32,000 nucleotides of DNA from Candidatus Iainarchaeum sp. (GTDB lineage Archaea > Iainarchaeota > Iainarchaeia > Iainarchaeales > VGJJ01), in the NCBI GenBank assembly GCA_030688545.1, contig JAUYHT010000006.1:413966-445965 (forward strand), given 5' to 3'. Numbering within the stretch: the stretch's first letter is position 1; each line of letters starts with the position of its first letter. The notes beneath the pieces are model-generated. The model did no database searches and was not told the DNA's origin. It was given only the letters and a program-made list of their open reading frames with translations. The position numbers and the translations under genes are program-made. Shown here piece by piece: positions 10,753 to 32,000 of the stretch.

Positions 10753-10801
10753 GCGTTTCCCCCCACCCTTCCTTACGTCGAAAGAGACATAAAAACCATG
10801 C

Positions 10802-11227: not shown

Positions 11228-11268
11228 CCCAGGGCAAGGTTATTAATCAATAAAAACGTTCGGGTTAG

Positions 11269-11571: not shown

Positions 11572-11579
11572 TAAACTAC

Positions 11580-11612: not shown

Positions 11613-11632
11613 ATAAAAGAAAGTAGGTTGCC

Positions 11633-12365: not shown

Positions 12366-12380
12366 CCCCTTTCCCTTCCT

Positions 12381-12590
12381 TCACCGCGCGCGGATCTCCT
12401 TGGCCTCGCGCTCCGTATTCAACAATACCAACACGTCCCCTTTCTTGAGGTTGCCTTTCACATTTCTTCGTTTTACGCGCCCTTTTTCGGGGCCGTCCAA
12501 AATCTTGCATAGGACTTGAGTTATCTCGCCATGCACGCCCGTGCGTTTGACTATTTCCACGACTTCCGCGGGGGTTCCCATTTCACTCAT
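12381..12590 (-). CDS. rps28e: 30S ribosomal protein S28e (eS28)
   Basis: [60 protein letters not shown] is a typical eS28 pattern. Confidence 0.9.
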
Positions 12591-12600
12591 AAACCATCAC

Positions 12601-12963
12601 CTATTTGGCCAATTCCATCAGTTTTTTAGCAAGGGTTTCTAGTTCATTCTGCGCATCCCCGGGTTCCACCACCGCAACGGCAGCCGTCCCTACTCCCAAC
12701 CCTGATTTTTCTCCCAGCTCCTTCTTGGATCCCATGAAGGAATAGGGGATTTTTTTCTCCTTGCAGAGCAAGGGCAGATGCATCGTCAACTCTTTTGGAT
12801 TGACATCCTGGGCAATCACCACCAACTTTGCCTGGTCGCGCTCGATGGCCTTGGTGACTTCATTGACCCCGATGCGAAGCTTCCCATTCTTTTTCCGGAG
12901 TTCGGATAGGAATTCCCCCTGCTGTTCCTGCAGGGCCTTGGGGACGTCAAATACAGTACTCAT
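12601..12963 (-). CDS. rpl7ae: 50S ribosomal protein L7Ae (k-turn binding protein)
   Basis: NEVTKAIERDQAKLVVIAQDVNP.E....LP.LC.EK.IPY......K.ELG matches L7Ae. I place the start at the ATG at 12963 (MSTVFDVP), which has GGTGAGGTGG 6 nt upstream. The track start (GTG 12978) lies inside that SD. Confidence 0.9.
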   Translation of the reverse strand: MSTVFDVPKALQEQQGEFLSELRKKNGKLRIGVNEVTKAIERDQAKLVVIAQDVNPKELTMHLPLLCKEKKIPYSFMGSKKELGEKSGLGVGTAAVAVVEPGDAQNELETLAKKLMELAK

Positions 12964-12969
12964 GCTCAA

Positions 12970-12997
12970 CCACCTCACCCTCGCGGGTTCATCGGCG
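12970..12997 (-). promoter_or_regulatory. Candidate kink-turn (k-turn) RNA motif in the rpl7ae 5' leader, overlapping the Shine-Dalgarno sequence
   Basis: Minus-strand RNA is CGCC-GAU-GA-ACCC-GCGA-GGGU-GA-GGUG. This gives a C-stem CGCC/GGUG, a 3-nt bulge, tandem G.A/A.G pairs, and an NC stem ACCC/GGGU closed by a GNRA loop. The 3' strand GAGGUG is also the SD for the ATG at 12963. Confidence 0.45.
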
Positions 12998-13052
12998 AAA
13001 AAATCGCCTGTTTCTAACCTAAAGCCCCGGGAAAGGGCTTATAAATGGAGGC

Positions 13053-13970
13053 CTAGCGGCGGCGATGAGGCCATCGGGGAATGATCCTCCTAAAGCGTGA
13101 TGGGGGACGGACAGATTTTTTTTGGGTATTCTTTCCGCGAGGATGGAGAGCCAAATCCACTAGAAACTGAGGGGATTGCCCGCGGACATATTCCACATCC
13201 CGGAGCTTAAATTTCTGTGAAATAAAAGAAGCCGGATCTTCGCCACGGCCTACCTTGACTAAAACACCTATCCCACACTTCCGGAGCAACTGCGGGTCGG
13301 CATCGCTGATGGCCATGGTTGTTTTGGGATTGAATGACCAGCCCTTTCGCCCGAAATGCGATTTGATGGCCGGGATTTTTTCGACGGCCGGAATAGATGT
13401 GTGCGTTTCGCCCACGAAATATTCCAATCCACTCACTTTCCCAGCGCGAGCCCCGCGATCGAACGTTTGTTTCGATCCGACAACGGCATCCACTCTCAAT
13501 CCGAACCGCCCACGAAGGTGGGCAGCTAATCGTTTCCCTAAAATGTCGGACGTTCCGGTGGTAAGGACGATTTTCACGCCTGGATTTTCCCTCTTGATCT
13601 GTTGAAGGGCGCCAATCACCCCCCAGTTGAATATACCTTCTCCGTAGGCACGATCAACTATTTCCTTCCAATCTCGTGCCGTCCATCCATGGCTCTTCTG
13701 AAGTTCATGCCCCCAATGTTTGACATCGGCAAAATTGGCTTTCCCAGATTTGACGCGCGCTTTCTGTTCAGCGTAAGCCTGCCGTGCCCCTTCGGGGCCA
13801 AGGATTTTTTCGAGCGCCCGATAAGGAGTTAGAACATCCAATAGAGTGTAATCAATATCCACTACAATGGTATCGATGCGCGGGGGGATTGAAGCTGTCT
13901 TCCTCTTCACGTAAAACAGGGCTGATTGAAGGGCATAGCTGCCCAATAGTTTAGCTTTCCCGAGTCCCAT
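13053..13970 (-). CDS. HAD-superfamily hydrolase-like protein
   Basis: HAD motif I is VVDIDYTLLDV (DxDxT). A later TTGTSD segment and a C-terminal ISDAD acidic motif are also present. The specific substrate is unknown. Confidence 0.55.
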   Translation of the reverse strand: MGLGKAKLLGSYALQSALFYVKRKTASIPPRIDTIVVDIDYTLLDVLTPYRALEKILGPEGARQAYAEQKARVKSGKANFADVKHWGHELQKSHGWTARDWKEIVDRAYGEGIFNWGVIGALQQIKRENPGVKIVLTTGTSDILGKRLAAHLRGRFGLRVDAVVGSKQTFDRGARAGKVSGLEYFVGETHTSIPAVEKIPAIKSHFGRKGWSFNPKTTMAISDADPQLLRKCGIGVLVKVGRGEDPASFISQKFKLRDVEYVRGQSPQFLVDLALHPRGKNTQKKSVRPPSRFRRIIPRWPHRRR

Positions 13971-13976
13971 GCACTT

Positions 13977-14885
13977 TCATCGTGTGCCCCTTTTTGTACT
14001 TTTCTGCATTTTCCATGTTCCTCCACCTTTTCTGCCCAAATATGAGCGGGCTTTCACTGCTGAGTAAAAAACAGGGGCTGCCCATAATGCCATTCTTTGT
14101 TTTGAGCTTAAGCTAGAATAGGCTGAAATTCCTCTTTGGAATGCTCGTAACACACTCGGATTCACGAATGCATTTACTCTTTTTCGACCAAACATTTTAC
14201 GTAATTGAAGAACCCCTTTCCATTGGCGAACCGCTTGTTTCCACGTTTCCCGGATTGAAGCAGGAGGGTGATAAACAACTCGAGCACTTGGAATTCGACG
14301 AACATTTTCAATACCTAATCGTAATGAAATAAACAAATCATCGTTTAGAATAGTAGATGGGATGTGGCCAATTTTAGGCACGGCTGATCCGCGCATCATC
14401 AAACACTTTCCGTCCAAATAGCGAAATCCGGCCACTTGATGGGGTATATCGGCTAAATTTTCAGATAGCTTCCTATTTCGCGATGCGTGTATAGAGGCAC
14501 CCACCCCCTCCAATCTAATATTCGTCTTTAATTCGTTATACAGCCTGGCGAGGGCATAAGTGGAAATAGTAACATCTCCTGTAATGAGTGCTAAGGCAAC
14601 CGATTTCGACGTCCATGCATGAGTTAAAATTGCATTTAGTGCCTCTGGTCGATTCGAAATGGATCGCTGTATAATAACAATATTTTCCTTCGGAATATTA
14701 AGTCGATGAATAGCTAAACGAATGGCTTCAACATTTTCTTTCAGCTTTTTTGAATTTGAATCATTGGCACAAACAATAATCCTTTTTTCTACTCCAACCA
14801 AATCAGCATTCCACACCGATGCAATAGTCTGCCCAATGAATTCTGGTTCACGATGCGTTGTAATCCCGATGACGAGCTGATGCAT
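13977..14885 (-). CDS. Glycosyltransferase family 2-like (GT-A fold) protein
   Basis: The N-terminal IGITTHREPEFIGQTIASV...RIIVCANDSNS and later LITGDV resemble the GT2 Rossmann-like core and a DxD-type motif. The gene is more AT-rich than its flanks. Recognition by eye only. Confidence 0.4.
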   Translation of the reverse strand: MHQLVIGITTHREPEFIGQTIASVWNADLVGVEKRIIVCANDSNSKKLKENVEAIRLAIHRLNIPKENIVIIQRSISNRPEALNAILTHAWTSKSVALALITGDVTISTYALARLYNELKTNIRLEGVGASIHASRNRKLSENLADIPHQVAGFRYLDGKCLMMRGSAVPKIGHIPSTILNDDLFISLRLGIENVRRIPSARVVYHPPASIRETWKQAVRQWKGVLQLRKMFGRKRVNAFVNPSVLRAFQRGISAYSSLSSKQRMALWAAPVFYSAVKARSYLGRKGGGTWKMQKSTKRGTR

Positions 14886-14919
14886 AACAGGAATTTAGTA
14901 TGGGCCCCTATTAATTCTC

Positions 14920-15399
14920 CTATTTTTGGGGGATAGATGCGAAATTCAATAGCCGCTGGGGCAATATTTTCCTCAAATCTGCCGTTCGGATGCGCACGCT
15001 TTCCGTGAGCAATCCGATGTTGAACTCCGCCCACTCGTGGTCGAACACACTTTCGTCGAGGTAGATGGGTAAAGGAGTGGAAAACCAAAAAGGAGGAACG
15101 GCCCCGGGCTCGCACCCCGTTTTTTCCAATACGATTTCCTTGGAGGCCAATTTCACCTTCTTGAATTCCAAAATTTCCCCGAACCGTTTCAAATCCATCT
15201 TTAGGTCCGCGGCCAGCAATGCCAAAACCACCCCCCGCTCGGTTTCAAGAACCATGGCTTTCACCCCATTGTGCAATTCTCCTTTCCGCGCGGCCATGGC
15301 CTGCTGGGAGGTGTACACCGGCTCGTGAGTGAAATGCTCGAATGGGATATTTTGTTCCTTAAAAGTGCGGAGGATGGCATCGCGTTCGGATTGGCCCAT
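14920..15399 (-). CDS. YbaK/ProX-type aminoacyl-tRNA trans-editing (deacylase) domain protein
   Basis: 159 aa. IPFEHFTHEPVYTSQQA....G....GVKAMVL......VLALLAAD.K.DLKR and GCEPGAVPPF are typical of the YbaK/ProX family. Confidence 0.7.
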   Translation of the reverse strand: MGQSERDAILRTFKEQNIPFEHFTHEPVYTSQQAMAARKGELHNGVKAMVLETERGVVLALLAADLKMDLKRFGEILEFKKVKLASKEIVLEKTGCEPGAVPPFWFSTPLPIYLDESVFDHEWAEFNIGLLTESVRIRTADLRKILPQRLLNFASIPQK

Positions 15400-15423
15400 A
15401 ATTAAAATGGAAGCGATCTGGTT

Positions 15424-15648
15424 TTATTTGGCGTGCTTGACCTGGTGTAACGATTGCCGCAGTCGCTTGTCGGTTTCCAATATCTGACGCGCGAGATGCG
15501 TGTTCAAATCCACGAGCTCGTTATGCTTGTCCTGCAATCCATGCAGACAGCGGGTTATTTGTTGGTTGGAATAGCGAATCAAGTATACTGCCACAATCAA
15601 GGACATGAGGAATAATCCCACCGAGACGAATAGCGTTCCGATGGCCAT
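15424..15648 (-). CDS. Small N-terminally anchored coiled-coil protein, paralogue A (hypothetical)
   Basis: One TM helix (LFVSVGLFLMSLIVAVYLIRYSNQQ) followed by a helical tail. It shares the VAVYLIRYSNQQ core with the adjacent ORF. Confidence 0.55.
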   Translation of the reverse strand: MAIGTLFVSVGLFLMSLIVAVYLIRYSNQQITRCLHGLQDKHNELVDLNTHLARQILETDKRLRQSLHQVKHAK

Positions 15649-15654
15649 AACAAG

Positions 15655-15927
15655 TCACTTCCGGATGGGGGCGGTTTGCCGCACCTCGGTCGACTCGCTC
15701 CCTTTTCGAACGTGTTTGATGGATTCGATTTCCCCGCGCAAGGACTTTTCATTCATGATAACTGTTTTGGTGAGACGGGCATTGAGTTTCATGAGCTCCA
15801 AATTCTTATCCCGGAGATGGGAGATGCTGCCCATGAGCTGTTGGTTGGAATACCGGATGAGATAGACAGCTACGATCAGCTGGACTATGAATAGGCCGAC
15901 GGCCATCACCATTTCAGTCGTTACCAT
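15655..15927 (-). CDS. Small N-terminally anchored coiled-coil protein, paralogue B (hypothetical)
   Basis: Contains MAVGLFIVQLIVAVYLIRYSNQQ and a helical tail colinear with paralogue A (L.DK..EL..LN..L). Its start overlaps the stop of the upstream 659-aa gene. Confidence 0.55.
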   Translation of the reverse strand: MVTTEMVMAVGLFIVQLIVAVYLIRYSNQQLMGSISHLRDKNLELMKLNARLTKTVIMNEKSLRGEIESIKHVRKGSESTEVRQTAPIRK

Positions 15928-17900
15928 GCTGGGGTTTCCCTCTCGATAAGGCCAAGAATTCGGCCTATTAAAACATTACCCCGTTTGGGGCGTTCCTGAG
16001 GGGGAATATAGCACCGGTTTACTTTCAGATAGGGGGCGATGAAGGGAATTTTGGGGAGAGGATTTGGAAGGGCGGAGGCCTGGTGGGTATAATGGTGTCG
16101 GAACCAGATGAGCAGGGCGAGGAGCAGAATAACCCCTAATATGAGGAGCATAGTAAGTCCCTCCCGGGAAAGGAGAGGGGATTGCTGTTCGAGGGTGGCG
16201 AGCAATGCTCCCAATCGGGAGAGTCGGGTGGAGATGTCGATGAGCAAAGGCCCCAATGTTTCAAAATCCCCAGCCAGCAATTTTCCTTTGGCCTGGGCGA
16301 GATCCGATTGGATAGCCAATAGTTGTGTCCGCGCGTCCGCGATGTCGAATCCCCGGCGCTGCATATCATCAATGGTTTTTTCCAATTGGTCCGCGCGCCA
16401 TTCCAAGTCCGCCAGAAGTTGAGCATAATATTCGTTGGGTGTTGTCACCCCAAAATGCACCGTTTTAGATTGAATGGTATTGTAAGCGTACACATTCACG
16501 TATACCGTATGGATCCCCACTCCCGCATGGAGGGGGATGAAGGGGGCATATTCCAGGGCACGGGTTTCCCCTGCGGAAAGGGATAGCGTCGTGGCCGAGC
16601 GACCATATTCCAATTGTTGCGCATCCACCACATACCAATCCACCCGCACGTTATCCTCCTGAAAATCCCCACTATTGAAAAGGTTGACCGTGAAGGGGTA
16701 GCTGAGGCCCAGGGCGCTCTTTTCCGAGGGGGCGGAAATGGTGAATGTCAGCGCGTGCTCGCCCCGCACGTCCATGTTCAAGTCATAGGTATCATACAGC
16801 ACGACCCCGCTCGCGGAGCGGAGCTCCATGCGCAGGTGATGCATCCCAAATTCGATGGGGGTAAAGGCTGGGTCGACGAGGAAGAGGGTGGATTGGAAGG
16901 GTGACAGGTCGGAAATGGGTTTTTCCCCGGTAATCACATAGGAAGAGGGGGTTGTGATGGTATACCGGAGCAGGTAATCCGTGAAAAGCGTGGTGAGGTT
17001 CTGCACGCGGGCGTACATCCCGGAAGGAGCGCCTTTGGCGAGTTCGGGTTGGAAAAAAACCTCCAGGATTTGTGCGCGTTTGGCCACACTCGCTCCCCCA
17101 CCACCTCCAGTGCCACCCCCACCGCCTCCACCGCTGCTCCCCCCGCTACCGCCCCCACTACTTCCCCCCCCGCCCCCCGAAGGAGATGCCAGCACCGTGA
17201 ATGTCCCCGTATTGTCCCAGACGAAACGGTTGCCGCACGTGAAAAGGGAGGCCACGGTATATTCCCCCGCCGGAGAGGGGCCGAAAAAGGTTTTGACAAA
17301 CTCCCCATTAGGTAATTGGGACATGCTCGCATTGGCATCCGCGATGGTTCCATCCGGGTAGTAGGTGGTGGTGTTGGCGTTGATGTCATAGACCGCATTT
17401 CCATCCGCATTGGTGATGGTGTTGCGGATGGTACCTAGCTCCCCAATGTTGAGGTCGAAGCCATTGTTGAGGAATGCGGTGGTCCAGGAGAGGGCACCCA
17501 AATAGACGTAGCCATTGATGTCCCCTTTGGCGCCCGATAGACCCTGGTACGCGGTGACTTGGAGAAAGTATTCCCCATTGAGATCAAAATTGAATGAATG
17601 GGTGTAGGTGCTGTCCCCGTTATTGGTGAAGTTCACATCCACGCTGGAGGCGTCGGGTTTTAGGATGGCGGCGAAGACATTGGCGTCTGAAACGGGGTGG
17701 CCGAATTGGATACCTTCTACCGAGGCGGTGATGAGGGTGTTTCCGGTGGCGGAAGGACACAAGGGGTAAGAGAGGGTGACAATGTATCCCGTTTCCAGGT
17801 TGGGAATCCACGTGACTCCCGTCGCGGCCCCGCTCACGGAGAGGGGAAGCATTAATCCCAAGAGGATCAGGAGGAGGAGATGGGTCAATCTCACATGCAT
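15921..17900 (-). CDS. Large cell-surface protein: signal peptide, beta-rich domains, 31-residue Gly/Ser linker, CARDB-like region, coiled-coil stalk, C-terminal TM anchor
   Basis: The signal peptide is MHVRLTHLLLLILLGLMLPLSVSGA. The linker is SGGGGGSSGGGSGGSSGGGGGGGTGGGGGAS. The helical stalk is YYAQLLADLEWRADQLEKTIDD..., and the TM helix LTMLLILGVILLLALLIWF lies near the C-terminus. A TATA-like TTAATTAAT (17922-17930) lies 22-30 nt upstream of the ATG. Confidence 0.7.
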   Translation of the reverse strand: MHVRLTHLLLLILLGLMLPLSVSGAATGVTWIPNLETGYIVTLSYPLCPSATGNTLITASVEGIQFGHPVSDANVFAAILKPDASSVDVNFTNNGDSTYTHSFNFDLNGEYFLQVTAYQGLSGAKGDINGYVYLGALSWTTAFLNNGFDLNIGELGTIRNTITNADGNAVYDINANTTTYYPDGTIADANASMSQLPNGEFVKTFFGPSPAGEYTVASLFTCGNRFVWDNTGTFTVLASPSGGGGGSSGGGSGGSSGGGGGGGTGGGGGASVAKRAQILEVFFQPELAKGAPSGMYARVQNLTTLFTDYLLRYTITTPSSYVITGEKPISDLSPFQSTLFLVDPAFTPIEFGMHHLRMELRSASGVVLYDTYDLNMDVRGEHALTFTISAPSEKSALGLSYPFTVNLFNSGDFQEDNVRVDWYVVDAQQLEYGRSATTLSLSAGETRALEYAPFIPLHAGVGIHTVYVNVYAYNTIQSKTVHFGVTTPNEYYAQLLADLEWRADQLEKTIDDMQRRGFDIADARTQLLAIQSDLAQAKGKLLAGDFETLGPLLIDISTRLSRLGALLATLEQQSPLLSREGLTMLLILGVILLLALLIWFRHHYTHQASALPNPLPKIPFIAPYLKVNRCYIPPQERPKRGNVLIGRILGLIERETPAW

Positions 17901-17930: not shown

Positions 17931-18014
17931 GGTTTCCCCCTTGGGCGTGGGAAGGGTAGTCAATCCCACCCATTTGGCTCGCCCCAGAGCGGGCAGTATC
18001 TCTCCAAAAAGGGC

Positions 18015-18180
18015 CCGTTTTTAATCGGATTTATTTCCAAAAAATGTTCGTTTTTTTAATCAAGCCTTTTTTCTAAAAAAATTAAAAAAATTCGTTTTTT
18101 GATGAAACTTTTTTCTAAAAAGTTTCTTTTGATCAAACTTTTTACTAAAAAGGTTTCTGAAAAGTTTATTCTAAAAAAGC
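18015..18180. repeat. Second tandem array (about 5 units) of the CGTTTTTTGATCAAACTTTTTTCTAAAAA repeat family
   Basis: Units begin near 18015, 18049, 18093, 18126 and 18157, e.g. CGTTTTTTGATGAAACTTTTTTCTAAAAAGTTT and CTTTTGATCAAACTTTTTACTAAAAAGGTTT. The orientation matches the 1134-1310 array. It starts 8 nt after the stop of the minus-strand gene 18188..19228. Confidence 0.85.
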
Positions 18181-23778: not shown

Positions 23779-23976
23779 GTGATTGTCTTGGAAACGATTC
23801 CGGCCAAAGTCACAAGCAAGTTAGTCGGGGAAATAGACGAATTGATTAAGGAAGGGTGGTATGCCAACCGCAGTGAGGTAGTGCGCGATGCGATTCGCGA
23901 TTTGGTGAAAAAACTACGCGCCGAAAAACTGGAACAGGCCATCAAAGAAGATGTAAATTGGGGATTGCATGGCTAA
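23779..23976 (+). CDS. Ribbon-helix-helix (CopG-like) antitoxin
   Basis: 65 aa. IPAKVTSKLVGEIDELIKEG.YANRSEVVRDAIRDLV is a typical RHH pattern. It overlaps the downstream PIN-like gene by 8 nt. Confidence 0.65.
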   Translation: MIVLETIPAKVTSKLVGEIDELIKEGWYANRSEVVRDAIRDLVKKLRAEKLEQAIKEDVNWGLHG

Positions 23977-24445
23977 AAAACGTATAGCCGTGTTGGATGC
24001 CGGGCCCTACATTCACTTGAAAGAAATCGGGGCACTGAAGGCACTCACGATTTTTGAATTAAATGTCCCCTTGGAAGTTCTGGACGAGGTAAAATCCCTG
24101 GATGGCATTTCCTGCACCCATCCCCCGGTCAAAAACAAATCCATGATAGGCATCCTCAGCACCCAATATGAATTAGGTTTGGGAGAATCCGCAGCGATAG
24201 CGCTATGCAAAGAAAAGAATATTGACTTGCTTCTCACCGATGATTTAGACGCCCGAACAGTCGCCCAAAAATTGGATCTACAACCTCACGGAACAATCGG
24301 AATACTATTACGCGCATACCGAGAAAAAGTATTCACCAAAAAAGAAACAATGGTATTCGTGAGGAAACTGAAAACGGACTCAACCATCTACATCACCAAC
24401 AACCTCATCGAATATATATTGAAAGAAATCGACGAGAGCAAATAG
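23969..24445 (+). CDS. PIN-like nucleic-acid-binding protein (DUF3368 / COG2405-type), putative toxin
   Basis: GLGESAAIALCKEKNIDLLLTDDLDARTVAQKLDLQPHGTIGILLRAYREKV matches the characteristic DUF3368 core as I remember it. The size (158 aa) fits. Confidence 0.65.
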   Translation: MAKKRIAVLDAGPYIHLKEIGALKALTIFELNVPLEVLDEVKSLDGISCTHPPVKNKSMIGILSTQYELGLGESAAIALCKEKNIDLLLTDDLDARTVAQKLDLQPHGTIGILLRAYREKVFTKKETMVFVRKLKTDSTIYITNNLIEYILKEIDESK

Positions 24446-24655
24446 GAATAACATTCCCTCACCGGCCTGAACCAGTTGCCCGGGAACCCTTGGTTGGCAC
24501 CGGCTCGTGAAGAAAAAAGCTGTGAATTACGGGGCACTGAAGTGCCCCGCGTCCGTTGGAACGACGAATTAGAAGGAATAAGCCGAAAGATCAATGGCGG
24601 GATTCATCTGCCTGCTGAAGCAGGCAGGGTTCTTCCGAAAACGGCTCTAAAATAT

Positions 24656-24726
24656 TGTGGGATGGTTTAATGGTAAGACGCGACCTTGCCAAGGTAGTAG
24701 CCCGGGTTCGATTCCCGGTCGCTGCA
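24656..24726 (+). tRNA. tRNA-Gly(GCC)-like sequence; the 5' acceptor strand does not pair, so it is a possible 5'-truncated copy or att site rather than a functional gene
   Basis: Hand fold: U8-G9; D arm GTTT/AATGGTA/AGAC; anticodon arm CGACC-TTGCCAA-GGTAG (one G.A mismatch, anticodon GCC at 24688-24690); variable loop TAGC; T arm CCGGG-TTCGATT-CCCGG; 3' acceptor TCGCTGC plus discriminator A (24719-24726). The expected 5' strand GCAGCGA is absent: the sequence is TGTGGGA, only 3/7 pairs, and no match occurs within 215 nt upstream. Confidence 0.55.
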
Positions 24727-24743
24727 TCTAACTGCCAGTTAGA
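24727..24743. promoter_or_regulatory. Perfect 8-bp inverted repeat immediately 3' of the tRNA-like sequence
   Basis: TCTAACTG-C-CAGTTAGA, followed by a T5 run at 24755-24759. It could be a recombinase-binding or att-flanking site, or part of a tRNA terminator. Confidence 0.35.
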
Positions 24744-24762
24744 GTGCCGTATGTCTTTTTGA

Positions 24763-26058
24763 ATGTTGGAAAAGGCAGGCACTACTATGCGAACCGAAAA
24801 AAGCTTTCATGACTACCCACGCATGCTCAAACGCTTGTGCGAAAGAATATGGCCAGAAGAGTACCCAGGGGAACTAAGAGAGGGACAAAAGTCATTCCAA
24901 TTGAACCCCCGAAACAAACAGATCCTCAAAGACCTGCTCTCCCATTTGGAACGCGAAAATTATAGCAGCGCGCGAATCATCCGCCTGGTAAGTTTCGTAG
25001 CCCTCCTGGGAGAAATGTTAGGAAAGGATTTTGACAAAGCCACCAAAGAAGACATTCAGGGAACCGATGGAATTGTGTCTAAAATCCTAAAGAAGTGGTC
25101 CAACGACACCACGCGCGAGATGGGAATACAATCCACCAAACAGTTCTACAAATGGCTGCTGGGAGAAAACGAAGAATATCCAGACATCGTTCGAAAAATA
25201 AAATTCCGACGAAAATACAAGGAAGAATATCTGAAGGAGATTCTAACAAAAGAAGAGGTGGCGAAAGTCATTGATACAGCCGACCATCCAATGAAGAAAG
25301 CCTTAATTGGGACGCTATATTCGGCAGGGCCGCGCATTAGTGAATTGGGCCTATTAAGCGTGAAGGATGTGGAGTTCCAAGATGACGAAGCAGTCATTAG
25401 TATTACCGAATCAAAGACCAGGAGACGCCGCGTTATTATCGTTAACTCCACCGTCAAACTCTTGCATGATTGGTTTGCCATCCACCCAAATCGAAACAAA
25501 CCAGACTTTCGGGAAACACCATTATTTGTCAGTGTATCACACCAAAAATATGGAAGAAGAATGGAATATGCATCTATTTGCAAAATGCTGAAAGTAACAA
25601 CCGCACTCGCGGGTATTCAAAAACCATGTAACCCGCATCACTGGCGCCATAGTTTCGCGACTCACTTGGCGCAAGATGGATACAGCGAATATCAAATCAA
25701 AATTATTCTCGGCCACTCCATGACCTCTAAGTCAACAGCCAGATACATCCACATGGCAGGGCAAGGAGTATTCGATGTAGTCCGAAAGAAAAATGGTAAA
25801 AAAATCATGGATGAAGGAGCCCAAAAACCCGCTTTGGAATACAAAAAATGTGATACATGTGGATATGGGGAGAACACATTTAATCAACTTGTCTGCAACA
25901 AGTGCATGCGCCCCCTTGGGATAGCTGAAAGACTCCAATACAAAGATCAACTATCAGAAATTCGAGGCAAAATGGAGAATATGGAGAAAGCCTATCACCT
26001 ACTGCTCAAGGCCCACCTGGAAACAATCGAATCAGAAAAGAGCAAACAAGCATTGTAG
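24763..26058 (+). CDS. int: Tyrosine recombinase / phage-type integrase with a C-terminal CxxC...CxxC zinc-ribbon extension
   Basis: Catalytic pattern: AGPRISEL (Arg), HHWRHSFATHL (HxxR), LGH, and ARYIHM (Tyr). The C-terminal extension is CDTCGYGENTFNQLVCNKC. An alternative start is the ATG at 24787. Confidence 0.88.
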   Translation: MLEKAGTTMRTEKSFHDYPRMLKRLCERIWPEEYPGELREGQKSFQLNPRNKQILKDLLSHLERENYSSARIIRLVSFVALLGEMLGKDFDKATKEDIQGTDGIVSKILKKWSNDTTREMGIQSTKQFYKWLLGENEEYPDIVRKIKFRRKYKEEYLKEILTKEEVAKVIDTADHPMKKALIGTLYSAGPRISELGLLSVKDVEFQDDEAVISITESKTRRRRVIIVNSTVKLLHDWFAIHPNRNKPDFRETPLFVSVSHQKYGRRMEYASICKMLKVTTALAGIQKPCNPHHWRHSFATHLAQDGYSEYQIKIILGHSMTSKSTARYIHMAGQGVFDVVRKKNGKKIMDEGAQKPALEYKKCDTCGYGENTFNQLVCNKCMRPLGIAERLQYKDQLSEIRGKMENMEKAYHLLLKAHLETIESEKSKQAL

Positions 26059-26088
26059 GCAATTTGGCACCTTTTGATGCCACAATGC

Positions 26089-26095
26089 TTTATAA
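26089..26095 (+). promoter_or_regulatory. TATA-like element upstream of the HTH gene (leaderless spacing)
   Basis: TTTATAA ends 21 nt before the ATG at 26117. Confidence 0.35.
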
Positions 26096-26116
26096 CCTAA
26101 AGATTGAGTCTTGGAT

Positions 26117-26896
26117 ATGGTTAAAGGAAAACCTGCTCAGAAACCCAAAGCGGTCGCTACCCACCGATTTAACAAGTTTTCAGTCGGGCGAGCAGCGGTG
26201 CTCTATAAACGTGGAATGTCCCGCGCGCTCGTATTAGAACACTTCTTCCGCACCTACGCCAAATCCTGGGGCATCCGGGATTACTTCGAAATGTATCAAT
26301 ACCTATTCGAAAAGGGCCCCGGACGAAGACCTAATCTCGCAAAGATGTTCGAGGGCAAGTCGGAGGGCCAGATCAGAGACGCATTTTTCGAGTGGCGACA
26401 AAAGAATATGAAGAGTTCTGGAAGACAGTCAGAACGAATGAGAAAACTCCATCAAGACCCAGAATTCCAAAAGAGACACAAAGCACAAGCGTCAGAACGA
26501 ATGAGAAAACTCTGGAAAGATCCGGAATGGCGCACTCGCCAGACTGAACTTATACGCGTAGCACTACAGCGACATTGGGATATCATACACAATGACCTAT
26601 TAGCGGAATTCAGGGGTCGGGGGCTAATTCAAACATATGATTTTCGCACCGAGGAGAGAGTCGCAGGAACAACCAAAACACCTCAGTCGGAAGCCATAGA
26701 AAGAGAGCGAAAAACACAAGTAGAAAAAGGAATCGCAAAACTTCAACCAGAAGAATCAGAAGCAATTACATCCACCTTTTTTGAAGGAAACGACTACCCA
26801 ACCACTGCCGAAAATATGGCAATAACGCTACCAGAATTAAATGAAATTTTAGATAGGGCCTATCGAAAGCTCGCGAAAGAACTGCGCGACCTTTAA
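26117..26896 (+). CDS. DNA-binding protein: two tandem 21-aa SERMRKLxxDPE[FW] repeats plus a C-terminal sigma-70 region-4-like HTH
   Basis: A 22-nt perfect direct repeat GTCAGAACGAATGAGAAAACTC occurs at 26428-26449 and 26491-26512, 63 nt apart. The C-terminus ESEAITSTFFEGNDYPTTAENMAITLPELNEILDRAYRKLAKEL fits the sigma70_r4 / LuxR-type HTH pattern. I place the start at the ATG at 26117 (the track gives TTG 26111). Confidence 0.6.
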   Translation: MVKGKPAQKPKAVATHRFNKFSVGRAAVLYKRGMSRALVLEHFFRTYAKSWGIRDYFEMYQYLFEKGPGRRPNLAKMFEGKSEGQIRDAFFEWRQKNMKSSGRQSERMRKLHQDPEFQKRHKAQASERMRKLWKDPEWRTRQTELIRVALQRHWDIIHNDLLAEFRGRGLIQTYDFRTEERVAGTTKTPQSEAIERERKTQVEKGIAKLQPEESEAITSTFFEGNDYPTTAENMAITLPELNEILDRAYRKLAKELRDL

Positions 26897-26949
26897 TAAA
26901 AAAAATAATGCCGGATAAGCCATAAAATGCCTATCCGAACAAAGAAGTT

Positions 26950-27219
26950 TTATCGTCTTTCGAGCCAGGCTTTTGCGCCTTTGTATACGTTGTTTAGGAA
27001 CGTATAGGCTACGAATGAAAATCCCGTTGTTTCGAGCTCGTTCGTGTTTAATCCTGCGCCCGCGGCAATTAGTCCGAGGAAAGCACCCCATACCATTGCG
27101 GGTAAAAACTTTCGCCAGTCGAAAACTTCTCCTTGACCAACATTTTTGGCCGCACCGCTGAATCCAGCAATAGCTCCACCAAAAAGTCCGGCCAGCATTA
27201 TACTGATTAGGTCTTCCAT
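26950..27219 (-). CDS. Small membrane protein (2-3 TM helices), holin-like by position
   Basis: 89 aa with the Gly/Ala-rich helices ISIMLAGLFGGAIAGFSGAA and FLPAMVWGAFLGLIAAGAGL. It is the last gene of the minus-strand operon. Confidence 0.45.
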   Translation of the reverse strand: MEDLISIMLAGLFGGAIAGFSGAAKNVGQGEVFDWRKFLPAMVWGAFLGLIAAGAGLNTNELETTGFSFVAYTFLNNVYKGAKAWLERR

Positions 27220-27259
27220 AGAAGATTCCCCCTCTCCACTGTGTTGTAGAGTGTGATAG

Positions 27260-27559
27260 TCATAGAAAGTAGCTCACGGCTGCACTGACAATGATTGATG
27301 CTATGGCGGCCATGACTACGATTTGTCCTTTTTGCGTATTCACCCATGCTTCGAGAGTTCGAATGCGTTTATTGAAATCATCATGCCATTCCGCATCATC
27401 CGTTACGTGTCTCTTTTGTTCGTCCCGATCGCGCACTGCTACTTCACGAAGCGTATCCACATGTCCAGCAGTCTTTGCATGAGCCACTTTGAGTTCTGAT
27501 ACCGATTGGATTAGTTTGTCGATTTTGTCTTCCATCCGAAATAGTAATTCGGTTTCCAT
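27260..27559 (-). CDS. Tail-anchored coiled-coil membrane protein, hypothetical
   Basis: 99 aa with a helical charged N-terminal part and a C-terminal TM helix IVVMAAIASIIVSAAVSYFL. Its start codon (27559-27557) overlaps the upstream gene's stop codon (27561-27559) by 1 nt. Confidence 0.5.
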   Translation of the reverse strand: METELLFRMEDKIDKLIQSVSELKVAHAKTAGHVDTLREVAVRDRDEQKRHVTDDAEWHDDFNKRIRTLEAWVNTQKGQIVVMAAIASIIVSAAVSYFL

Positions 27560-28545
27560 TAGTTGTTCCCCCCGATTGGTTCAATGACTACTTTTGATCC
27601 GAGAAAAGACTGGAAGTCTGATTCGTCTTGTGGGGTAATGAATTTGTTCCACGCATTGCGTTGATTGAACGAGAACCACACACCCCAAATTCCAAAATCA
27701 TCTGTTTTATTTTTCGCATCAATTGTAGTGGGTAACTTTGTAATTTTGGAAGCATTTTCGAATCCACTTCCATACGTTGAATTGAAATGATGAAATTTTT
27801 CGGTCTCATCCGCATAGCCATAAAGTGTGGCATGTCCCCCCAGGTTACAATTTCCTATGGCAATTCTTCCCTTCCAATCCGGAATGCCAGCCGCATTCCA
27901 ATAGGTCTTTAGATAGACGGCCCAGCTGTCGCAGTCCGCCGCTTTCTGTTCTTTGATTCGGATGCGTTCATTAATTTCAAAGGGAAACTCCCACACCTCG
28001 GGAAAAGAAGGGCCGTAAAGATTCCAGTCGAAAGCGTATCCATACTTCTTTTTCTTTGCCCACTTGTAGATCTCCAGCATTATTTCGTCATGGTTTCCCT
28101 TTTCAGTTTGGAATCCTTCTTTCTTTACCTCTTCTTTTATGCGCCAGTCCTCAGGAGTGATCAACAACCGGGGATCAATGCTCATGAGCTTGTCAAACTT
28201 GGGAAGCGGTCGACAAGAATAGGAAATATTGGCTTTGGGATATTTTGCATTCCAGAATTTTGCATTTTCATCTTGCCCTTCCGCATCGATTTGCTGCGTA
28301 ACGAGCGCATTATATTTCTGCACCCATTCATCTGTTTTCTTTTGAACCTCCACTTTTTCATTCGCAATTTTGGTAACTTTCTTTTTTGTTTCTAACAGCT
28401 CTTCGGACTGTATCGCGTTGTCCGTTTGAGCATCGCGAAGTTCTTGTTGAGCATTCTTCAATTTCGCCAATTCTGTAGCACAAAGAACTTGACAAACCGC
28501 TCCACGAGCGCTATCCAATTTTTCTATCAAGCTCACTTTTAGCAC
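27559..28545 (-). CDS. Transglutaminase-like / papain-fold cysteine peptidase domain protein with an N-terminal coiled coil (putative lysin or virion-associated hydrolase)
   Basis: AADCDSWAVYLKTYWNAAGIPDWKGRIAIGNCNLGGHATLYGYADE fits the transglutaminase-core pattern: Cys nucleophile, a GIP segment, then His and Asp. Recognition by eye only. Confidence 0.45.
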   Translation of the reverse strand: MLKVSLIEKLDSARGAVCQVLCATELAKLKNAQQELRDAQTDNAIQSEELLETKKKVTKIANEKVEVQKKTDEWVQKYNALVTQQIDAEGQDENAKFWNAKYPKANISYSCRPLPKFDKLMSIDPRLLITPEDWRIKEEVKKEGFQTEKGNHDEIMLEIYKWAKKKKYGYAFDWNLYGPSFPEVWEFPFEINERIRIKEQKAADCDSWAVYLKTYWNAAGIPDWKGRIAIGNCNLGGHATLYGYADETEKFHHFNSTYGSGFENASKITKLPTTIDAKNKTDDFGIWGVWFSFNQRNAWNKFITPQDESDFQSFLGSKVVIEPIGGNN

Positions 28546-28784
28546 TCCTGCTTTAGCAATGTTGCTACGGCCTCAATGTTTCCCAATTCGAGCGCGTTCA
28601 CGAGTTCCATGCAGCGGTTTAATCCCCGCACATGGTTCCAAACCTGTTCCTGATGCCTCAATGCCTCTGCGTAACGCTTGTTTCGAATAGCGTTTTCGGT
28701 TTTCTCCAGCCACGTCGTCATTTCTTTTTTGTGAGCGAAATAGTGGGCCACAAGGTTTTCGATTTTTTGAGTGGTATAGTCCAT
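28539..28784 (-). CDS. Hypothetical small helical protein
   Basis: 81-aa ORF, co-oriented and overlapping the downstream gene by 7 nt. No family recognised. Confidence 0.45.
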   Translation of the reverse strand: MDYTTQKIENLVAHYFAHKKEMTTWLEKTENAIRNKRYAEALRHQEQVWNHVRGLNRCMELVNALELGNIEAVATLLKQEC

Positions 28785-28793
28785 TTTTTACAC

Positions 28794-29045
28794 CTACTGC
28801 AGTGGCGTTCCGGGCACAATCACCCATTGGTTCTGCGTTTTTTCTTCTGGGGTTAGGTCGTTTTGTCGAGTGACCGTAATGCGTTTTACGGCTCCTGCGT
28901 GAATGTAATAATCTTTTTTTTGTGCAGGATGGTCGAATATGCGGTATCCTGAGCACCCGGAATTGAAGTTGGCAGCGGGAATATCTGTCAATGTTTCGTT
29001 TGTTCCATCGGTGTACTCGATTTCGATTGTTAGCGTTTCAGACAT
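28794..29045 (-). CDS. Hypothetical small protein
   Basis: 83-aa ORF, tightly packed in the operon. GGAGGAAAAAAACT precedes the ATG on the minus strand. Confidence 0.45.
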   Translation of the reverse strand: MSETLTIEIEYTDGTNETLTDIPAANFNSGCSGYRIFDHPAQKKDYYIHAGAVKRITVTRQNDLTPEEKTQNQWVIVPGTPLQ

Positions 29046-29073
29046 AGTTTTTTTCCTCCAAGATTTATTTTTT

Positions 29074-29877
29074 TTAGTCGATTATTCTCCCAACGAAAAC
29101 CACATCGTAGAATAGCGGTTTGTTGTCCGTTGTCGAGAGCGACGCACTATTCAAAACAGATATTCCACTCGTGCAACACGAAAATCCAGGTTGATGGGGA
29201 ACAGATGAGGTGGTGCCCGTGCTGATGGATTGGGTATCGCTTCCACCTGTTCCGCCGGAAGTGCTATTTCCGCGGAGAAACTTATTTCCCCCATTCAAAT
29301 CTGGAAGTGTTTGTCCATTGTAGGGTGAGTCCGTATTGCTGACGGTTCCCCCACTTAATTCTTGAAAACCATACTTTAGTGCGGGAGTGTTGGTATAGGA
29401 TTTTAGCCACACTTTTACTTCGCCGATAAATCCATCGCGCCCCATGATGGGTCGAATGTCTCGGATTTGATCATTGGTAATCGCCGTGTCATTAGCTGGA
29501 ACAAGAATGTAGGCCAGTGGAATAGTAGGAGCACTGGAAGCCGGAATCGTTGGTCGTATAGGAGTAGCGGCAGGAGTTCCGGCCAGGTATCCTTTTGTAA
29601 CCGTTCCTGCGATCGTGTCCACGATTAAATAAATCGCATCGTAACGCGGATTGGTGGCATCGGCGGTATCAAGCGTTTGCGTGGTAGCCGTAAAGCTAAT
29701 CGGTACTCCGGCTACGTTTACGACCCCTGCTTTGAGGTCGACAACCATGTCCGAGGCACTGGATCCTTGATCGACTCGACAGCCGAATTCTACCCAACAA
29801 TTTAGACTTCGGTTTGCTTCGGAATCAAATCCCGGATCTCCATCGGTCTTAGGATACTGTCCTTCAGTGGCCGCCAT
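29074..29877 (-). CDS. Tail-fibre / receptor-binding-like protein with a tail-collar-like motif
   Basis: GQTLPDLNGGNKFLRGNSTSGGTGGSDT resembles the LPDLRGR..RG...G..GG signature of phage tail-collar (MdpB-like) domains. The N-terminal NPRYDAIYLIVD...LAYILVPANDTAITNDQIRDIRP resembles fibre N-terminal domains. Confidence 0.5.
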   Translation of the reverse strand: MAATEGQYPKTDGDPGFDSEANRSLNCWVEFGCRVDQGSSASDMVVDLKAGVVNVAGVPISFTATTQTLDTADATNPRYDAIYLIVDTIAGTVTKGYLAGTPAATPIRPTIPASSAPTIPLAYILVPANDTAITNDQIRDIRPIMGRDGFIGEVKVWLKSYTNTPALKYGFQELSGGTVSNTDSPYNGQTLPDLNGGNKFLRGNSTSGGTGGSDTQSISTGTTSSVPHQPGFSCCTSGISVLNSASLSTTDNKPLFYDVVFVGRIID

Positions 29878-29906
29878 AATCGGTCACCTCGAACTGTAAC
29901 CGATAT

Positions 29907-30392
29907 TTAATACTCCCTACGCACAATGCGCTGCTCTTTTTTTTCGCGTTGCGCCATACGTTTTACATCTTCTTGGGCCTGTGCAATGTGATCATCTATT
30001 TGGGCGGGAGTAACGTGTCCAATTTTTACTCCTCTCCGTCGAGCTATTGGTGAAAGTCCGGTTTCTTGCATGATGCGATCCTTGCGTTCGCGTGCCGCTT
30101 CATATCCTTTTTTTCCTGGATTATTTTGCGCGTGATGTCGTTTGAAGTGGATACAATACTCGCACCAAATTCCCTTTCCCATCTCACAATCCACTTGAAC
30201 CTTTTGGGCTATTCCCACACTGTTCTTGTAATCATAATACGGGTACGCGCAAGGCACAGTAATTTCTTTCTCATTATTTTTCATTCGTACCAGCCGCGCT
30301 TTTTCTATTGCGATGGATTTTCTTCGCTGTTCGGCCACTGCTAAAATAAATCCCTTATTAGCTTCGGCGAGTAGTTGTCCAGGTGTAGTCAT
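29907..30392 (-). CDS. Hypothetical Cys/His-containing protein
   Basis: 161-aa ORF. VPCAYPYYDY....VDCEMGKGIWCEYCIHFKRHH suggests a metal-binding cluster. No family recognised. Confidence 0.45.
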   Translation of the reverse strand: MTTPGQLLAEANKGFILAVAEQRRKSIAIEKARLVRMKNNEKEITVPCAYPYYDYKNSVGIAQKVQVDCEMGKGIWCEYCIHFKRHHAQNNPGKKGYEAARERKDRIMQETGLSPIARRRGVKIGHVTPAQIDDHIAQAQEDVKRMAQREKKEQRIVRREY

Positions 30393-30409
30393 TCGTTTTT
30401 CCTCCCATT

Positions 30410-30874
30410 TTATCCGCTGATGTACTCTATGGTGTAGGCCCAGTCCATTTCGACCGAGCTATCTTTGTCAATCGTTGAAAAAGTGGCGCGTGTAACCAAA
30501 ATGCCTGAAACTGCTGCGGTGAGTAATCCGACTTCCGAGAATGTTCCGGGTGTGTTTCCTTCTGTTTTGAGAATGGGCCATTCAAATCGTACTTTTCCAA
30601 TACCGATGCTTGCGTCTACGGTTACGGCTTTTCGTATGATCTCGGCTCCCAGCGTGGTGTCTCCAGAGGTGGGTGACGTTGTGCTGTTTCCTAATGCTGC
30701 GTGGGTAATTTTTGCGGAAGACAGGCCGGCGATTAGGTCGCGATGTAAATCAGCCCCATTATTCGTCATGAGATTGTACGTATCGACCACCTTGATTCGC
30801 GTTCCATTGGCAAATCTTTTCCATGCTTCAATGTGACCTCTAATTTTTGTTTTTTGTTCGATTTCGTATGTCAT
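30410..30874 (-). CDS. Hypothetical protein, probable virion structural protein by context
   Basis: 154-aa ORF whose start overlaps the upstream LamG gene stop (4 nt). It is beta-rich, with ALGNSTTSPTSGDTTLGAEI. No family recognised. Confidence 0.45.
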   Translation of the reverse strand: MTYEIEQKTKIRGHIEAWKRFANGTRIKVVDTYNLMTNNGADLHRDLIAGLSSAKITHAALGNSTTSPTSGDTTLGAEIIRKAVTVDASIGIGKVRFEWPILKTEGNTPGTFSEVGLLTAAVSGILVTRATFSTIDKDSSVEMDWAYTIEYISG

Positions 30875-32000
30875 GCGCTTGCCCCCGTAATTGCATTTAG
30901 TGTTTTAATTGTCCGTCGTGGTGAACCACGTCCTGCAACAGCGATAGTGTCATACGCTGAGATGGTCATGTAATCGAAGGTGATTGAATCCGCGCCGGAG
31001 ACGACCCATCTTTTTTGAATGAAATTTACGCTCGCCCAATTGATTGCTTTAGTGGCCCATGCAATATCGTCTAAATCGATCAGCAAATAGGTGGGTTGAT
31101 CGTTATCGAGTGCAAATGCTGAAACGTGTCCGGCCACTTTCCATGCGTATTGTTTTGCTTGATTTTCGCAATAGTTTGTTGAGGATGATCCAATTCGAAC
31201 GTCAAAGTCTGTTACATTTCCTCCATTGAGGATGTATCCCCATACTCCGAGCGTTCCGCGCCAAGGATAGAACCAGGTGTTGTCCCATATTGCGTTTGTG
31301 ATGCTTCCGTGATTTGCATTTGCACTGCTATCACTTGCTTGGGTTCCTGTTCCTATATTGAGTTTCCACCATCCAATAAGATTTGTCGTAGAAATTTGAG
31401 TAGGCTTATTGTATATGGCTGCGACTTCAACCGATCCAACTAATCGATTCCAGAATGCTGCATTAGCGATTCTTCCATTGAATTCAAATCCAGCCGTGAG
31501 ATCTCCGCGTGTTGCAATGGCGAGTGCAATGTTGTTGAGAATGCTTCCCGTAATCGAGGTCGTCGATGATCCGGATCCAATTTCTACTCCATTGACATAG
31601 GTTCGAATAATACGATTGGGGCCATCATTCGTAAACGTAAGCATGTCCCACTGTGCATCGGTTACGGAGCCAACCGGGGAGGTGGCCGTGTTTGTGCCAT
31701 CGAAGAGTTGGAGGGCAACTGTATTTCCTGCAGCACTGCATAGCGCGTGATAGCCGGCGCTGGCCGTATCTCCTGCTTTCGAAAATAGTCGCTTATTTCC
31801 GGTGCCCCCACTTGTTTTGTTGACCCATAGGTTAATGGTAAATGAGTCTGTTTTTTCGAGATCATAGGCACTAATCTCGGGTATGGCCACGTAGTCTCCG
31901 CTTCCATCAAAATTCAAGCAATAAGTTTTGAGGGTATTAACCAGGTTGAGTGTGCTTCCTCCATAATTTACGATTCCTGTTCCGGTGGAAACTGCCCACG
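30871..32000 (-). CDS. LamG / concanavalin-A-like lectin domain fibre protein (5' end lies beyond the window)
   Basis: FDGSGDYVAIPE...DSFTINLWVNK...WDMLTFTNDG...YVNGVEIGS...FNGRIANAAFWNRLVGSVEVAAIYN is a typical Laminin_G_3 pattern. A second LamG-like start follows (LIGWWKLNIGTGTQASDSSANANHG). The track start at 31917 is a TTG, and I read the frame as open from there to nt 32000. Confidence 0.7.
   Translation of the reverse strand, partial: WAVSTGTGIVNYGGSTLNLVNTLKTYCLNFDGSGDYVAIPEISAYDLEKTDSFTINLWVNKTSGGTGNKRLFSKAGDTASAGYHALCSAAGNTVALQLFDGTNTATSPVGSVTDAQWDMLTFTNDGPNRIIRTYVNGVEIGSGSSTTSITGSILNNIALAIATRGDLTAGFEFNGRIANAAFWNRLVGSVEVAAIYNKPTQISTTNLIGWWKLNIGTGTQASDSSANANHGSITNAIWDNTWFYPWRGTLGVWGYILNGGNVTDFDVRIGSSSTNYCENQAKQYAWKVAGHVSAFALDNDQPTYLLIDLDDIAWATKAINWASVNFIQKRWVVSGADSITFDYMTISAYDTIAVAGRGSPRRTIKTLNAITGASA

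Follow-up and report, generated by a model that had tools for sequence, protein, structure and literature searches.

What lies to the right of the tRNA-Gly-like sequence near 24.7 kb in this 32,000-nucleotide (nt) stretch of DNA, hereafter the window, and is it a virus that has entered the chromosome, the relic of one, or something else? All positions given below are those of the window unless a contig is named. The left 23.6 kb is archaeal chromosome, carrying the genes for Kae1, RpoE′, aIF2-gamma and aIF5B at 2–10 kb and, to the right of this block, genes for surface and KaiC-like proteins, and the host is archaeal. The proteins encoded from 23779 to 30874 are identical to NCBI entries MDP2666893–MDP2666904, whose record is labeled 'MAG: Candidatus Diapherotrites archaeon' (MAG, metagenome-assembled genome), a DPANN archaeon. 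The NCBI locus tags run from Q8P05_05350, the PIN gene listed in Table 1, to Q8P05_05400 on one contig of 445,965 bp. An initial annotation, made from the letters of the window, had placed the integrase-proximal fiber and lysis end of an integrated tailed-virus-like element here. Our analysis bears this out through the synteny of five genes with a virus contig, the structural matches of two proteins (p267 and p328) and the finding of a related integrase beside an intact tRNA-Gly in another archaeon. We favor the interpretation that a siphovirus-type provirus, inserted at a secondary tRNA-Gly-like site in an ultra-small DPANN archaeon ('Ca. Diapherotrites', from groundwater), has its left, integrase-proximal end at approximately 24704–32000, and we assign this reading a probability of roughly 0.72.

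A minus-strand operon shared with tailed-virus contigs

Nine minus-strand open reading frames (ORFs) occupy 26950–32000, with intergenic gaps of −4 to +40 nt and a hairpin closing the series, in line with the at least nine packed genes counted initially (Table 1). The closest relative is a 19.6-kb metagenomic contig from the Logan assemblies, SRR14932495_79359 (loci L003/L007). Five consecutive orthologs stand in the same order in both, with amino acid identities of 44% for the C-terminus of the tail-tip (Tal) protein, 46% for p154 (against a 152-residue protein at the same position of L007), 38% for p161 (against a 159-residue protein, likewise in the same position), 47% for p267 and 61% for p328. 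The small proteins p81 and p83 are absent from this relative. Upstream of the shared genes, L003/L007 encodes a tape measure protein, a Phage_tube_2 tube protein, head-tail connectors, a Neck1-type protein and a major head protein (phrog_24667, 1.8e-45). Because five genes of the window are syntenic with a contig that encodes both head and tail, we read them as the distal end of a siphovirus-type late operon. Two L007 proteins at the positions expected for the terminase large subunit and the portal, of 356 (partial) and 593 amino acids, had no PHROG match. A tail tube and a tape measure are present in the relatives, a sheath was seen in none of them, and their tails are of the siphovirus type.

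The protein that is still open at 32000 had been described as a LamG fiber protein. Its LamG domain and its open end were confirmed, but its assignment as a fiber was not. The last 130 residues are 43–44% identical to the C-termini of two proteins encoded after the tape measure, of 970 amino acids in L007 and 701 amino acids in L004, and in L007 this protein follows the tape measure gene and a gene for a 174-residue protein. As the ORF aligns with the C-terminus of the 970-residue protein, we interpret it as a tail-tip (Tal-like) protein and not as a free fiber. Judged by these full-size counterparts of 700–970 amino acids, the window would show its C-terminal part.

For p267, a collar motif had been proposed, and this holds by transitive homology. 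Residues 151–265 are 49% identical to a 150-residue protein that matches PF07484 (Collar), and the L007 ortholog matches both Collar and Gp10_C; p267 itself has no Pfam match. PHROG searches with p267 gave virion-structural and baseplate matches (best 1.7e-12), while tblastn against 50,697 phage records gave no match. The structure searches that the initial annotation had proposed were run on p267 and p328, and returned receptor-binding-protein matches for the former and LapG-like matches for the latter. The AlphaFold2 model of p267 has a predicted local distance difference test score (pLDDT) of 68 overall and of 72–93 in its two domains. With this model, Foldseek retrieved many BFVD entries named 'Receptor Binding Protein [Siphoviridae]' at 2e-6 and weaker, as well as the tail fiber of cyanophage A-1(L) from the PDB (7e-4) and SPP1 gp22, from which p267 is predicted to have a receptor-binding-protein fold. 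Searches of PDB sequences with p328, p154 and p267 yielded nothing useful, the single match being a weak one of p154 to a 'baseplate hub'.

Table 1. Positions of the features in and beside the element, from left to right.
Feature	Position	Strand	Evidence or remark
RHH (ribbon-helix-helix) antitoxin-like gene	23779-23976	+	Pfam RHH_8 1.9e-8; GC (guanine-cytosine content) 0.47
PIN/DUF3368 toxin-like gene	23969-24445	+	Pfam DUF3368 3e-4; GC 0.44; NCBI tag Q8P05_05350
Chimeric tRNA-Gly(GCC)-like sequence of non-canonical form, interpreted as attL (left attachment site)	24657-24726	+	Rfam tRNA, 39.8 bits, anticodon GCC
Candidate att core and element left boundary, GGGTTCGATTCCCGGTCGCTGCATCTAA	24704-24731	+	Break point of an independent assembly
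Tyrosine integrase	24763-26058 (NCBI start 24787, 423 aa, MDP2666895.1)	+	PF00589 5.9e-25; phrog_1 1.9e-31
TATA-like box TTTATAA	26090-26096	+	24 nt before the regulator ATG
Putative DNA-binding regulator, 259 aa	26117-26896	+	C-terminal HTH (helix-turn-helix)-like region; Sigma70_r4 E=0.09, phrog_11138 0.0028
Terminator-like hairpin with T-run, closing the minus-strand operon	26938-26911	-	Past the last gene
p89, two-TM (transmembrane) holin-like protein, last operon gene	26950-27219	-	Predicted TM 3-23, 38-57
p99, coiled-coil protein with C-terminal TM anchor	27260-27559	-	One predicted TM segment, 77-99
p328, coiled coil and predicted LapG/transglutaminase-like cysteine protease domain	27559-28545	-	Family alignment, AlphaFold2, Foldseek
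p81, small protein	28539-28784	-	Sub-threshold family matches; NCBI tags of p81 and p83, Q8P05_05380 and 05385
p83, small protein	28794-29045	-	Sub-threshold family matches; NCBI tags as given for p81
p267, predicted receptor-binding or tail-fiber-type protein	29074-29877	-	N-terminal beta-sandwich, C-terminal collar/Gp10_C-like domain
p161, basic protein with four Cys	29907-30392	-	Position between tail genes conserved
p154, tail- or baseplate-associated protein	30410-30874	-	phrog_5417 6.7e-17; tail-fiber phrog_4176 2e-7
LamG tail-tip (Tal-like) protein, C-terminal 375 aa	30871-32000	-	No stop up to 32000; PF13385 2.3e-16

Homologs of p328 occur on approximately 20 contigs and stand at the end of the tail module wherever the flank suffices. 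Relatives (L021 at its positions 11485–16062; L006 and L011) encode an MCM helicase, the anaerobic ribonucleotide reductase NrdD, an ERCC4 nuclease, a PAPS reductase and cytidylyltransferases, and two relatives sit in archaeal MAG contigs. The MCM, ERCC4 and NrdD genes, together with these two MAG contigs, fit an archaeal virus group. One contig, L040, has a cluster of four tRNA genes. The related contigs measure 33–47 kb, and by analogy the element may be tens of kb long; the GC of the relatives ranges from 0.28 to 0.59. The lineage was seen at 41 loci in JGI/ENA metagenomes and at one in IMG/VR, and LamG-based scans gave no match in IMG/VR or in GTDB genomes. The suggestion that this may be an undescribed archaeal virus group is therefore accepted in part. 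The lineage has no name and hardly occurs in IMG/VR, but earlier catalogs already list tailed viruses and proviruses of DPANN archaea (PMC13573593; the groundwater catalog PMC11310336; the Hainich survey PMC12960796).

The same genes could be read without a virus, as a plasmid-like island or one resembling an integrative and conjugative element, in which the LamG and collar proteins would be adhesins and the protease would be secreted in the service of an episymbiotic DPANN lifestyle. LamG/concanavalin proteins on DPANN-linked mobile DNA have been read as cell-adhesion functions (PMC11310336), and most ORFs here are without a curated family. However, the operon is syntenic gene for gene with a contig that has genes for a major head protein, neck, tube and tape measure, the structure of p267 matches phage receptor-binding proteins, and no conjugation or replication genes are found within the window. 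We consider a non-viral island extremely improbable.

The integrase and its tRNA-Gly-like boundary

The integrase scores 88.5 bits against PF00589 (cutoff 27.1) and retains every catalytic residue (R191, K218, H292xxR295, H318 and Y328), so that the full R/HxxR/Y pattern reported for it is upheld and the enzyme is, by its sequence, intact. A split integrase of the SSV type was rejected, given an in-frame TGA directly before the ATG at 24763 and the presence of the full catalytic domain. Beyond the catalytic Tyr, residues 363–381 (25849–25905) form a CxxC...CxxC zinc-ribbon-like motif, to which a coiled-coil tail of about 50 amino acids is added; such a C-terminal extension is unusual among phage integrases. 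No relatives of the integrase were found in IMG/VR.

The wording 'tRNA-like' for the sequence at the edge of the element proved to be the right one. It is a tRNA-Gly by its Rfam match, yet ARAGORN missed it at the default setting and detected it only at the 80% threshold (ps80), and the NCBI annotation (PGAP) calls no tRNA there and has no locus tag between Q8P05_05350 and the integrase (05355 by order). The D, anticodon and T arms are recognizable. The 5′ acceptor strand lacks one base, and the acceptor stem can be paired only by admitting a bulge and two G.U pairs, failing which it has four mismatches; the anticodon stem contains a G.A mismatch. The seven-bp acceptor stem, the intact cloverleaf and the detection by standard tools that characterize a canonical tRNA are all missing from 24657–24726. 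Its 3′ acceptor strand, UCGCUGC-A, is of the element or tRNA-Gly(CCC) type.

The source of this strand is indicated by the Logan contig L053 (16.6 kb), which comes from another archaeon (host GC 0.41; flanking genes RFC, ThrRS and SAM synthetase). Here, an integrase of the same 90%-identity cluster as that of the window, with 87.7% nucleotide identity, is preceded by an intact tRNA-Gly(CCC) of 62.6 bits located 60 nt upstream. The acceptor stem of that tRNA is GCAGCGA/UCGCUGC, and its 3′ strand and trailer are exactly as in the window. L053 also has a normal tRNA-Gly(GCC), which the D arm, anticodon arm and T loop of the window copy resemble (89% over 56 nt). Since the same 3′ acceptor strand and trailer belong, in L053, to an intact tRNA-Gly(CCC) beside a related integrase, we attribute them to the element. 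On sequence grounds, the tRNA-like sequence is then a hybrid, with 5′ two-thirds of GCC type that are partly decayed and with a 3′ strand and trailer that are element-borne and of tRNA-Gly(CCC) ancestry. We conclude that it is a non-functional attL product and not a tRNA gene. Because a single copy mixes two glycine isoacceptors (GCC on the 5′ side, CCC in the 3′ strand), integration at a secondary or pseudo site is suggested. Two other explanations were tried and rejected. For a split, intron-bearing or permuted tRNA, the 5′ strand GCAGCGA was found only at chance sites, relaxed ARAGORN runs with introns gave nothing credible, and L053 favored a chimera. For an attR fragment of an element on the left, there is no tRNA in 1–24656, and essential genes lie at 2–10 kb.

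An independent assembly places the left boundary. Logan sample SRR13727534 has contigs 100% identical to the window, among which the chromosome-side contig (L054) stops at 24731 and the integrase-side contig begins at 24704, with an overlap of only the 28-nt GGGTTCGATTCCCGGTCGCTGCATCTAA. Either a 28–30-mer is repeated, as attL and attR would be, or the sample contains two different contexts for the sequence right of 24704. As both explanations of the break put the left boundary of the element at 24704, we adopt it as the approximate position of the boundary.

A break of this kind would also be left by an assembly or binning artifact, in which a free virus or the provirus of another organism, bearing a tRNA-like attP, was joined to the chromosome at a shared repeat of about 30 nt. 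The Logan assembly splits exactly at 24704–24731 and leaves chromosome and integrase unbridged, and in GC the element (0.45) is closer to the host of L053 (0.41) than to the window chromosome (0.52). L054, however, already carries the hybrid tRNA, its 3′ acceptor strand of the element type included, followed by 5 nt of trailer, so that this chromosome is marked by the element family regardless of the sequence to the right. The repeat of 28–30 nt is shorter than a read, and assemblers using a larger k resolve such repeats. In addition, L053 has the same integrase chromosomally linked to the archaeal housekeeping genes named above. The element-type strand in L054 and the linkage in L053 together make an assembly chimera very unlikely, and we retain the interpretation of a provirus integrated in this chromosome.

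Base composition agrees with the lower GC described initially, at 0.454 over 24763–32000 against 0.523 left of 23628, but the step lies at approximately 23.7 kb and not at the tRNA-like sequence, because the RHH-PIN pair is low in GC as well. We treat this pair as flanking DNA, possibly left over from a previous insertion at this site; such a history would explain why the target tRNA copy was dispensable.

The gene next to the integrase had been called a leaderless HTH gene. The spacing of the TTTATAA box fits a leaderless archaeal transcript, though it is no proof of one, and the support for the HTH is weak (Sigma70_r4 in Table 1). At 26428–26528 the regulator contains a tandem 21-residue repeat, SERMRKLHQDPEF / SERMRKLWKDPEW (SERMRKLxxDPE), which is reminiscent of modular DNA-binding repeats in homing-endonuclease-associated proteins.

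Candidate lysis genes and the state of the probable provirus

A transglutaminase-fold peptidase had been recognized in p328, and the alignment and model both substantiate it. D204-C205-D206, H238, H253 and N255 are invariant in a 19-member family alignment. The AlphaFold2 model (pLDDT 82) consists of an N-terminal two-helix coiled coil of about 90 amino acids and a globular domain, for which the best Foldseek matches in the PDB are LapG proteases (4.7e-6, probability 1.0), followed by a transglutaminase and the CPR-C4 protease. p328 itself has no Pfam match at E<=0.1, PF01841 and PF06035 included; three of the 19 family members match Pfam protease models (Peptidase_C93/PF06035 in two, Transglut_core in one). 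From the model, p328 is predicted to have a LapG-like protease fold, and we regard it as a candidate lysis or envelope-degrading enzyme. A profile search of a protein library returned 710 clusters at 50% identity, 101 of which fell below 1e-30.

Two small membrane proteins had been noted at the operon end, and the transmembrane predictions agree, with two segments in p89 and one, C-terminal, in p99. Both lie directly downstream of the protease, a holin-endolysin-type gene arrangement. Proteins with the architecture of p99 follow the protease in L004 and L008, and the two-TM protein after the protease in L006 is a p89 homolog (pairwise E=7e-7). This trio of protease, coiled-coil tail-anchored protein and small two-TM protein closes the late operon in L004, L006, L007 and L008. 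We speculate that the trio is the lysis system of a widespread archaeal tailed-virus group and that its protease cleaves S-layer or other envelope proteins and not a glycan wall, a tentative proposal that we hold to be possible but doubtful. According to a 2024 review, no S-layer-degrading enzyme had been identified in archaeal viruses and holins were still elusive (PMC10791045), which makes the trio a concrete lysis candidate. If the proposal is true, it would provide the first candidate S-layer-degrading enzyme and holin pair for archaeal viruses, and the trio is a concrete candidate, open to testing, for the means by which tailed viruses of archaea get through an envelope made only of protein.

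Fold, position and conservation suggest how such a provirus might live, and the steps that we infer for lysogeny, adsorption and lysis are as follows. The integrase would recombine the tRNA-Gly 3′ end carried by the element with a chromosomal sequence resembling tRNA-Gly(GCC). For integrases of its lineage, tRNA-Gly(CCC) would be the cognate target. The product would be a mismatched, non-functional tRNA at attL, which the host would tolerate, probably because the target was redundant or already decayed. The regulator beside the integrase may be a lysogeny or early regulator, expressed as a leaderless transcript from its own TATA box. Upon induction, the late operon would be read leftwards from beyond 32000 to the hairpin at 26.9 kb. 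During adsorption, the LamG tail-tip and the collar-domain protein would bind glycosylated surface (S-layer) components. For release, we hypothesize that p89 permeabilizes the membrane, whereupon p328 gains access to the proteinaceous envelope, with p99 as an accessory or regulator.

Several results weigh against the provirus interpretation. No capsid, portal, terminase, tube or tape-measure genes are found inside the window, and with the L003 tube protein as query no protein of the window's MAG was retrieved, although the same query also misses the L004 tube. None of the virus-group relatives examined carries the window integrase. No second att copy was found, whether in the window, among IMG/VR sequences or in the loci retrieved, the one tRNA-derived copy of the window being that at the integrase end, and the SRR13727534 assembly does not bridge the junction between chromosome and integrase. 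In L053, the integrase is followed by an unrelated HxlR gene and by truncated copies of the HTH regulator and p89 genes (9868–13040 of that contig). The holin-family matches of p89 are sub-threshold (phrog_6384 holin 0.0016; LydA holin 0.042), and position and predicted fold are what mark p328, p99 and p89 as candidates for a lytic role. Finally, the LamG gene is 05405 by order and Q8P05_05430 is on a different contig, which leaves at most four more genes on the contig of the window. The window therefore ends at or near a contig end, with the assembly break inside the element.

Much of this would be expected if the locus were a defective remnant (a cryptic provirus), or a tail, adhesin or lysis module that has been domesticated, left with integrase, regulator, fiber and lysis genes only and forming no virion. 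No head or packaging genes are visible, the contig ends within four genes of 32000, and no protein of the MAG resembles the tube protein of the closest relative. The copy in L053 is clearly decayed, its truncated HTH and p89 genes indicating that copies of the element decay in place, and the extra damage in the attL tRNA suggests age. On the other hand, all eleven genes are intact, the integrase has kept every catalytic residue, and the late genes are tightly packed, in conserved order and 38–61% identical to those of a contig with a full head and tail module. The L007 tube does not detect the L004 tube even though the proteases of these two loci are 55% identical; as tube proteins diverge very fast within the group, the negative result for the MAG carries little weight. 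A break inside an element is typical of strain-variable or duplicated proviruses. Q8P05_05430, five locus tags past the LamG gene on another contig of the same MAG (155,887 bp), is a p89 paralog with 92% identity. The paralog points to another related element in the bin or to a provirus that is split, either of which would account for the assembly break inside the element. We consider a remnant unlikely and continue to favor a siphovirus-type provirus whose remaining genes would lie beyond the window. L053, read as a decayed copy in a host of different composition, points to recent horizontal spread of the element.

Flanking sequences and comparison with known systems

Outside the element, a spacer of 211 nt separates the PIN gene from the tRNA-like sequence (24446–24656). 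It contains two perfect 8-bp hairpins with TGAA loops (24530–24549 and 24608–24627) and has a fold z-score of −2.5; a search of this spacer for a non-coding RNA gave no Rfam match. Farther left, at 1125–1306 and 18006–18160, AT-rich tandem units of 33–36 nt occur in four copies each. These two arrays are intergenic and 17 kb apart, and each unit holds the palindrome TTGATCAA; they could be origin-, promoter- or terminator-associated repeats. A second compositional island is formed by a lone gene of GC 0.418 at 13977–14885, within chromosome of GC 0.52–0.56. At 9727–10752, a PRK08356-like N-terminal domain is fused to a dCMP/dCTP deaminase, and this protein matches the anti-phage dCTP deaminase model NF041025 at 1e-26, under the cutoff of the model.

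The nearest comparison for the element itself is with the metagenomic virus contigs. SRR14932495_79359 (L003/L007) as well as L004, L006, L008 and L009 have the same order of Tal(LamG), p154, p161, p267, protease and small membrane proteins, at 38–61% amino acid identity. They differ from the window in that no integrase or tRNA was seen in these contigs, and in the absence of p81 and p83. Through its physical integration, an uncultured siphovirus lineage otherwise represented by anonymous metagenomic contigs is unambiguously linked to a host, namely a 'Ca. Diapherotrites' archaeon of the DPANN group.

In archaea, tailed proviruses are commonly found at tRNA genes, and the partial tRNA copies that border them are known to mislead annotation (PMC9897764). 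Archaeal head-tailed proviruses at such genes leave one complete and one partial tRNA copy, as described for Thermococcaceae elements (PMC9897764) and in a set of 38 head-tailed proviruses (PMC11705971). The window element resembles them in having a tyrosine integrase beside a tRNA-derived att site and a tRNA-like sequence that automated tools misjudge. It differs in that the copy beside the integrase is the damaged one and a hybrid of two glycine isoacceptors. An integrase with cognate tRNA-Gly(CCC) appears to have used a tRNA-Gly(GCC)-like site here, which shows how tRNA-like pseudogenes may arise and confuse annotation.

With regard to DPANN viruses, a catalog of viruses and proviruses by Wu, Liu and Ni (2024, Nat Microbiol) is cited in PMC13573593, and the groundwater and Hainich surveys reported viruses of about 41 kb with LamG proteins (PMC11310336, PMC12960796). 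The window element has the host superphylum and the groundwater habitat in common with these, and a 1.5-kb contig from Hainich groundwater well H51 is 87% identical in nucleotides to the window. The surveyed viruses are reported to be mostly virulent, whereas the window element is integrated, and a temperate example with identifiable integrase and att site is useful for this reason.

The predicted protease has two points of comparison. LapG/BTLCP (Peptidase C93, PF06035), the best structural match to p328, has in common with it an invariant set of the Cys-His-Asp/Asn type, at a sequence identity of 13–14%. LapG is a periplasmic bacterial adhesin-processing protease. In contrast, p328 is encoded in a viral late operon, has an N-terminal coiled coil of about 90 amino acids and has no evident signal peptide.

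The second comparison is with PeiP and PeiW, the pseudomurein endoisopeptidases of the Methanothermobacter viruses psiM2 and psiM100 (discussed in PMC10791045). These lysis enzymes of archaeal siphoviruses are cysteine peptidases with a transglutaminase-like fold, and their genes stand near the end of the structural set. As modeled, p328 is likewise a cysteine peptidase of this fold near the structural-gene end of an archaeal siphovirus, with a candidate lytic role, and it gave no sequence or Pfam match to the PeiP/PeiW family. Pseudomurein is not known from DPANN hosts, so the substrate of p328 would differ from that of PeiP and PeiW. Overall, the element is of a fairly ordinary kind; what goes beyond the routine is its hybrid tRNA, which points to off-target use of another glycine isoacceptor, and its candidate lysis trio.

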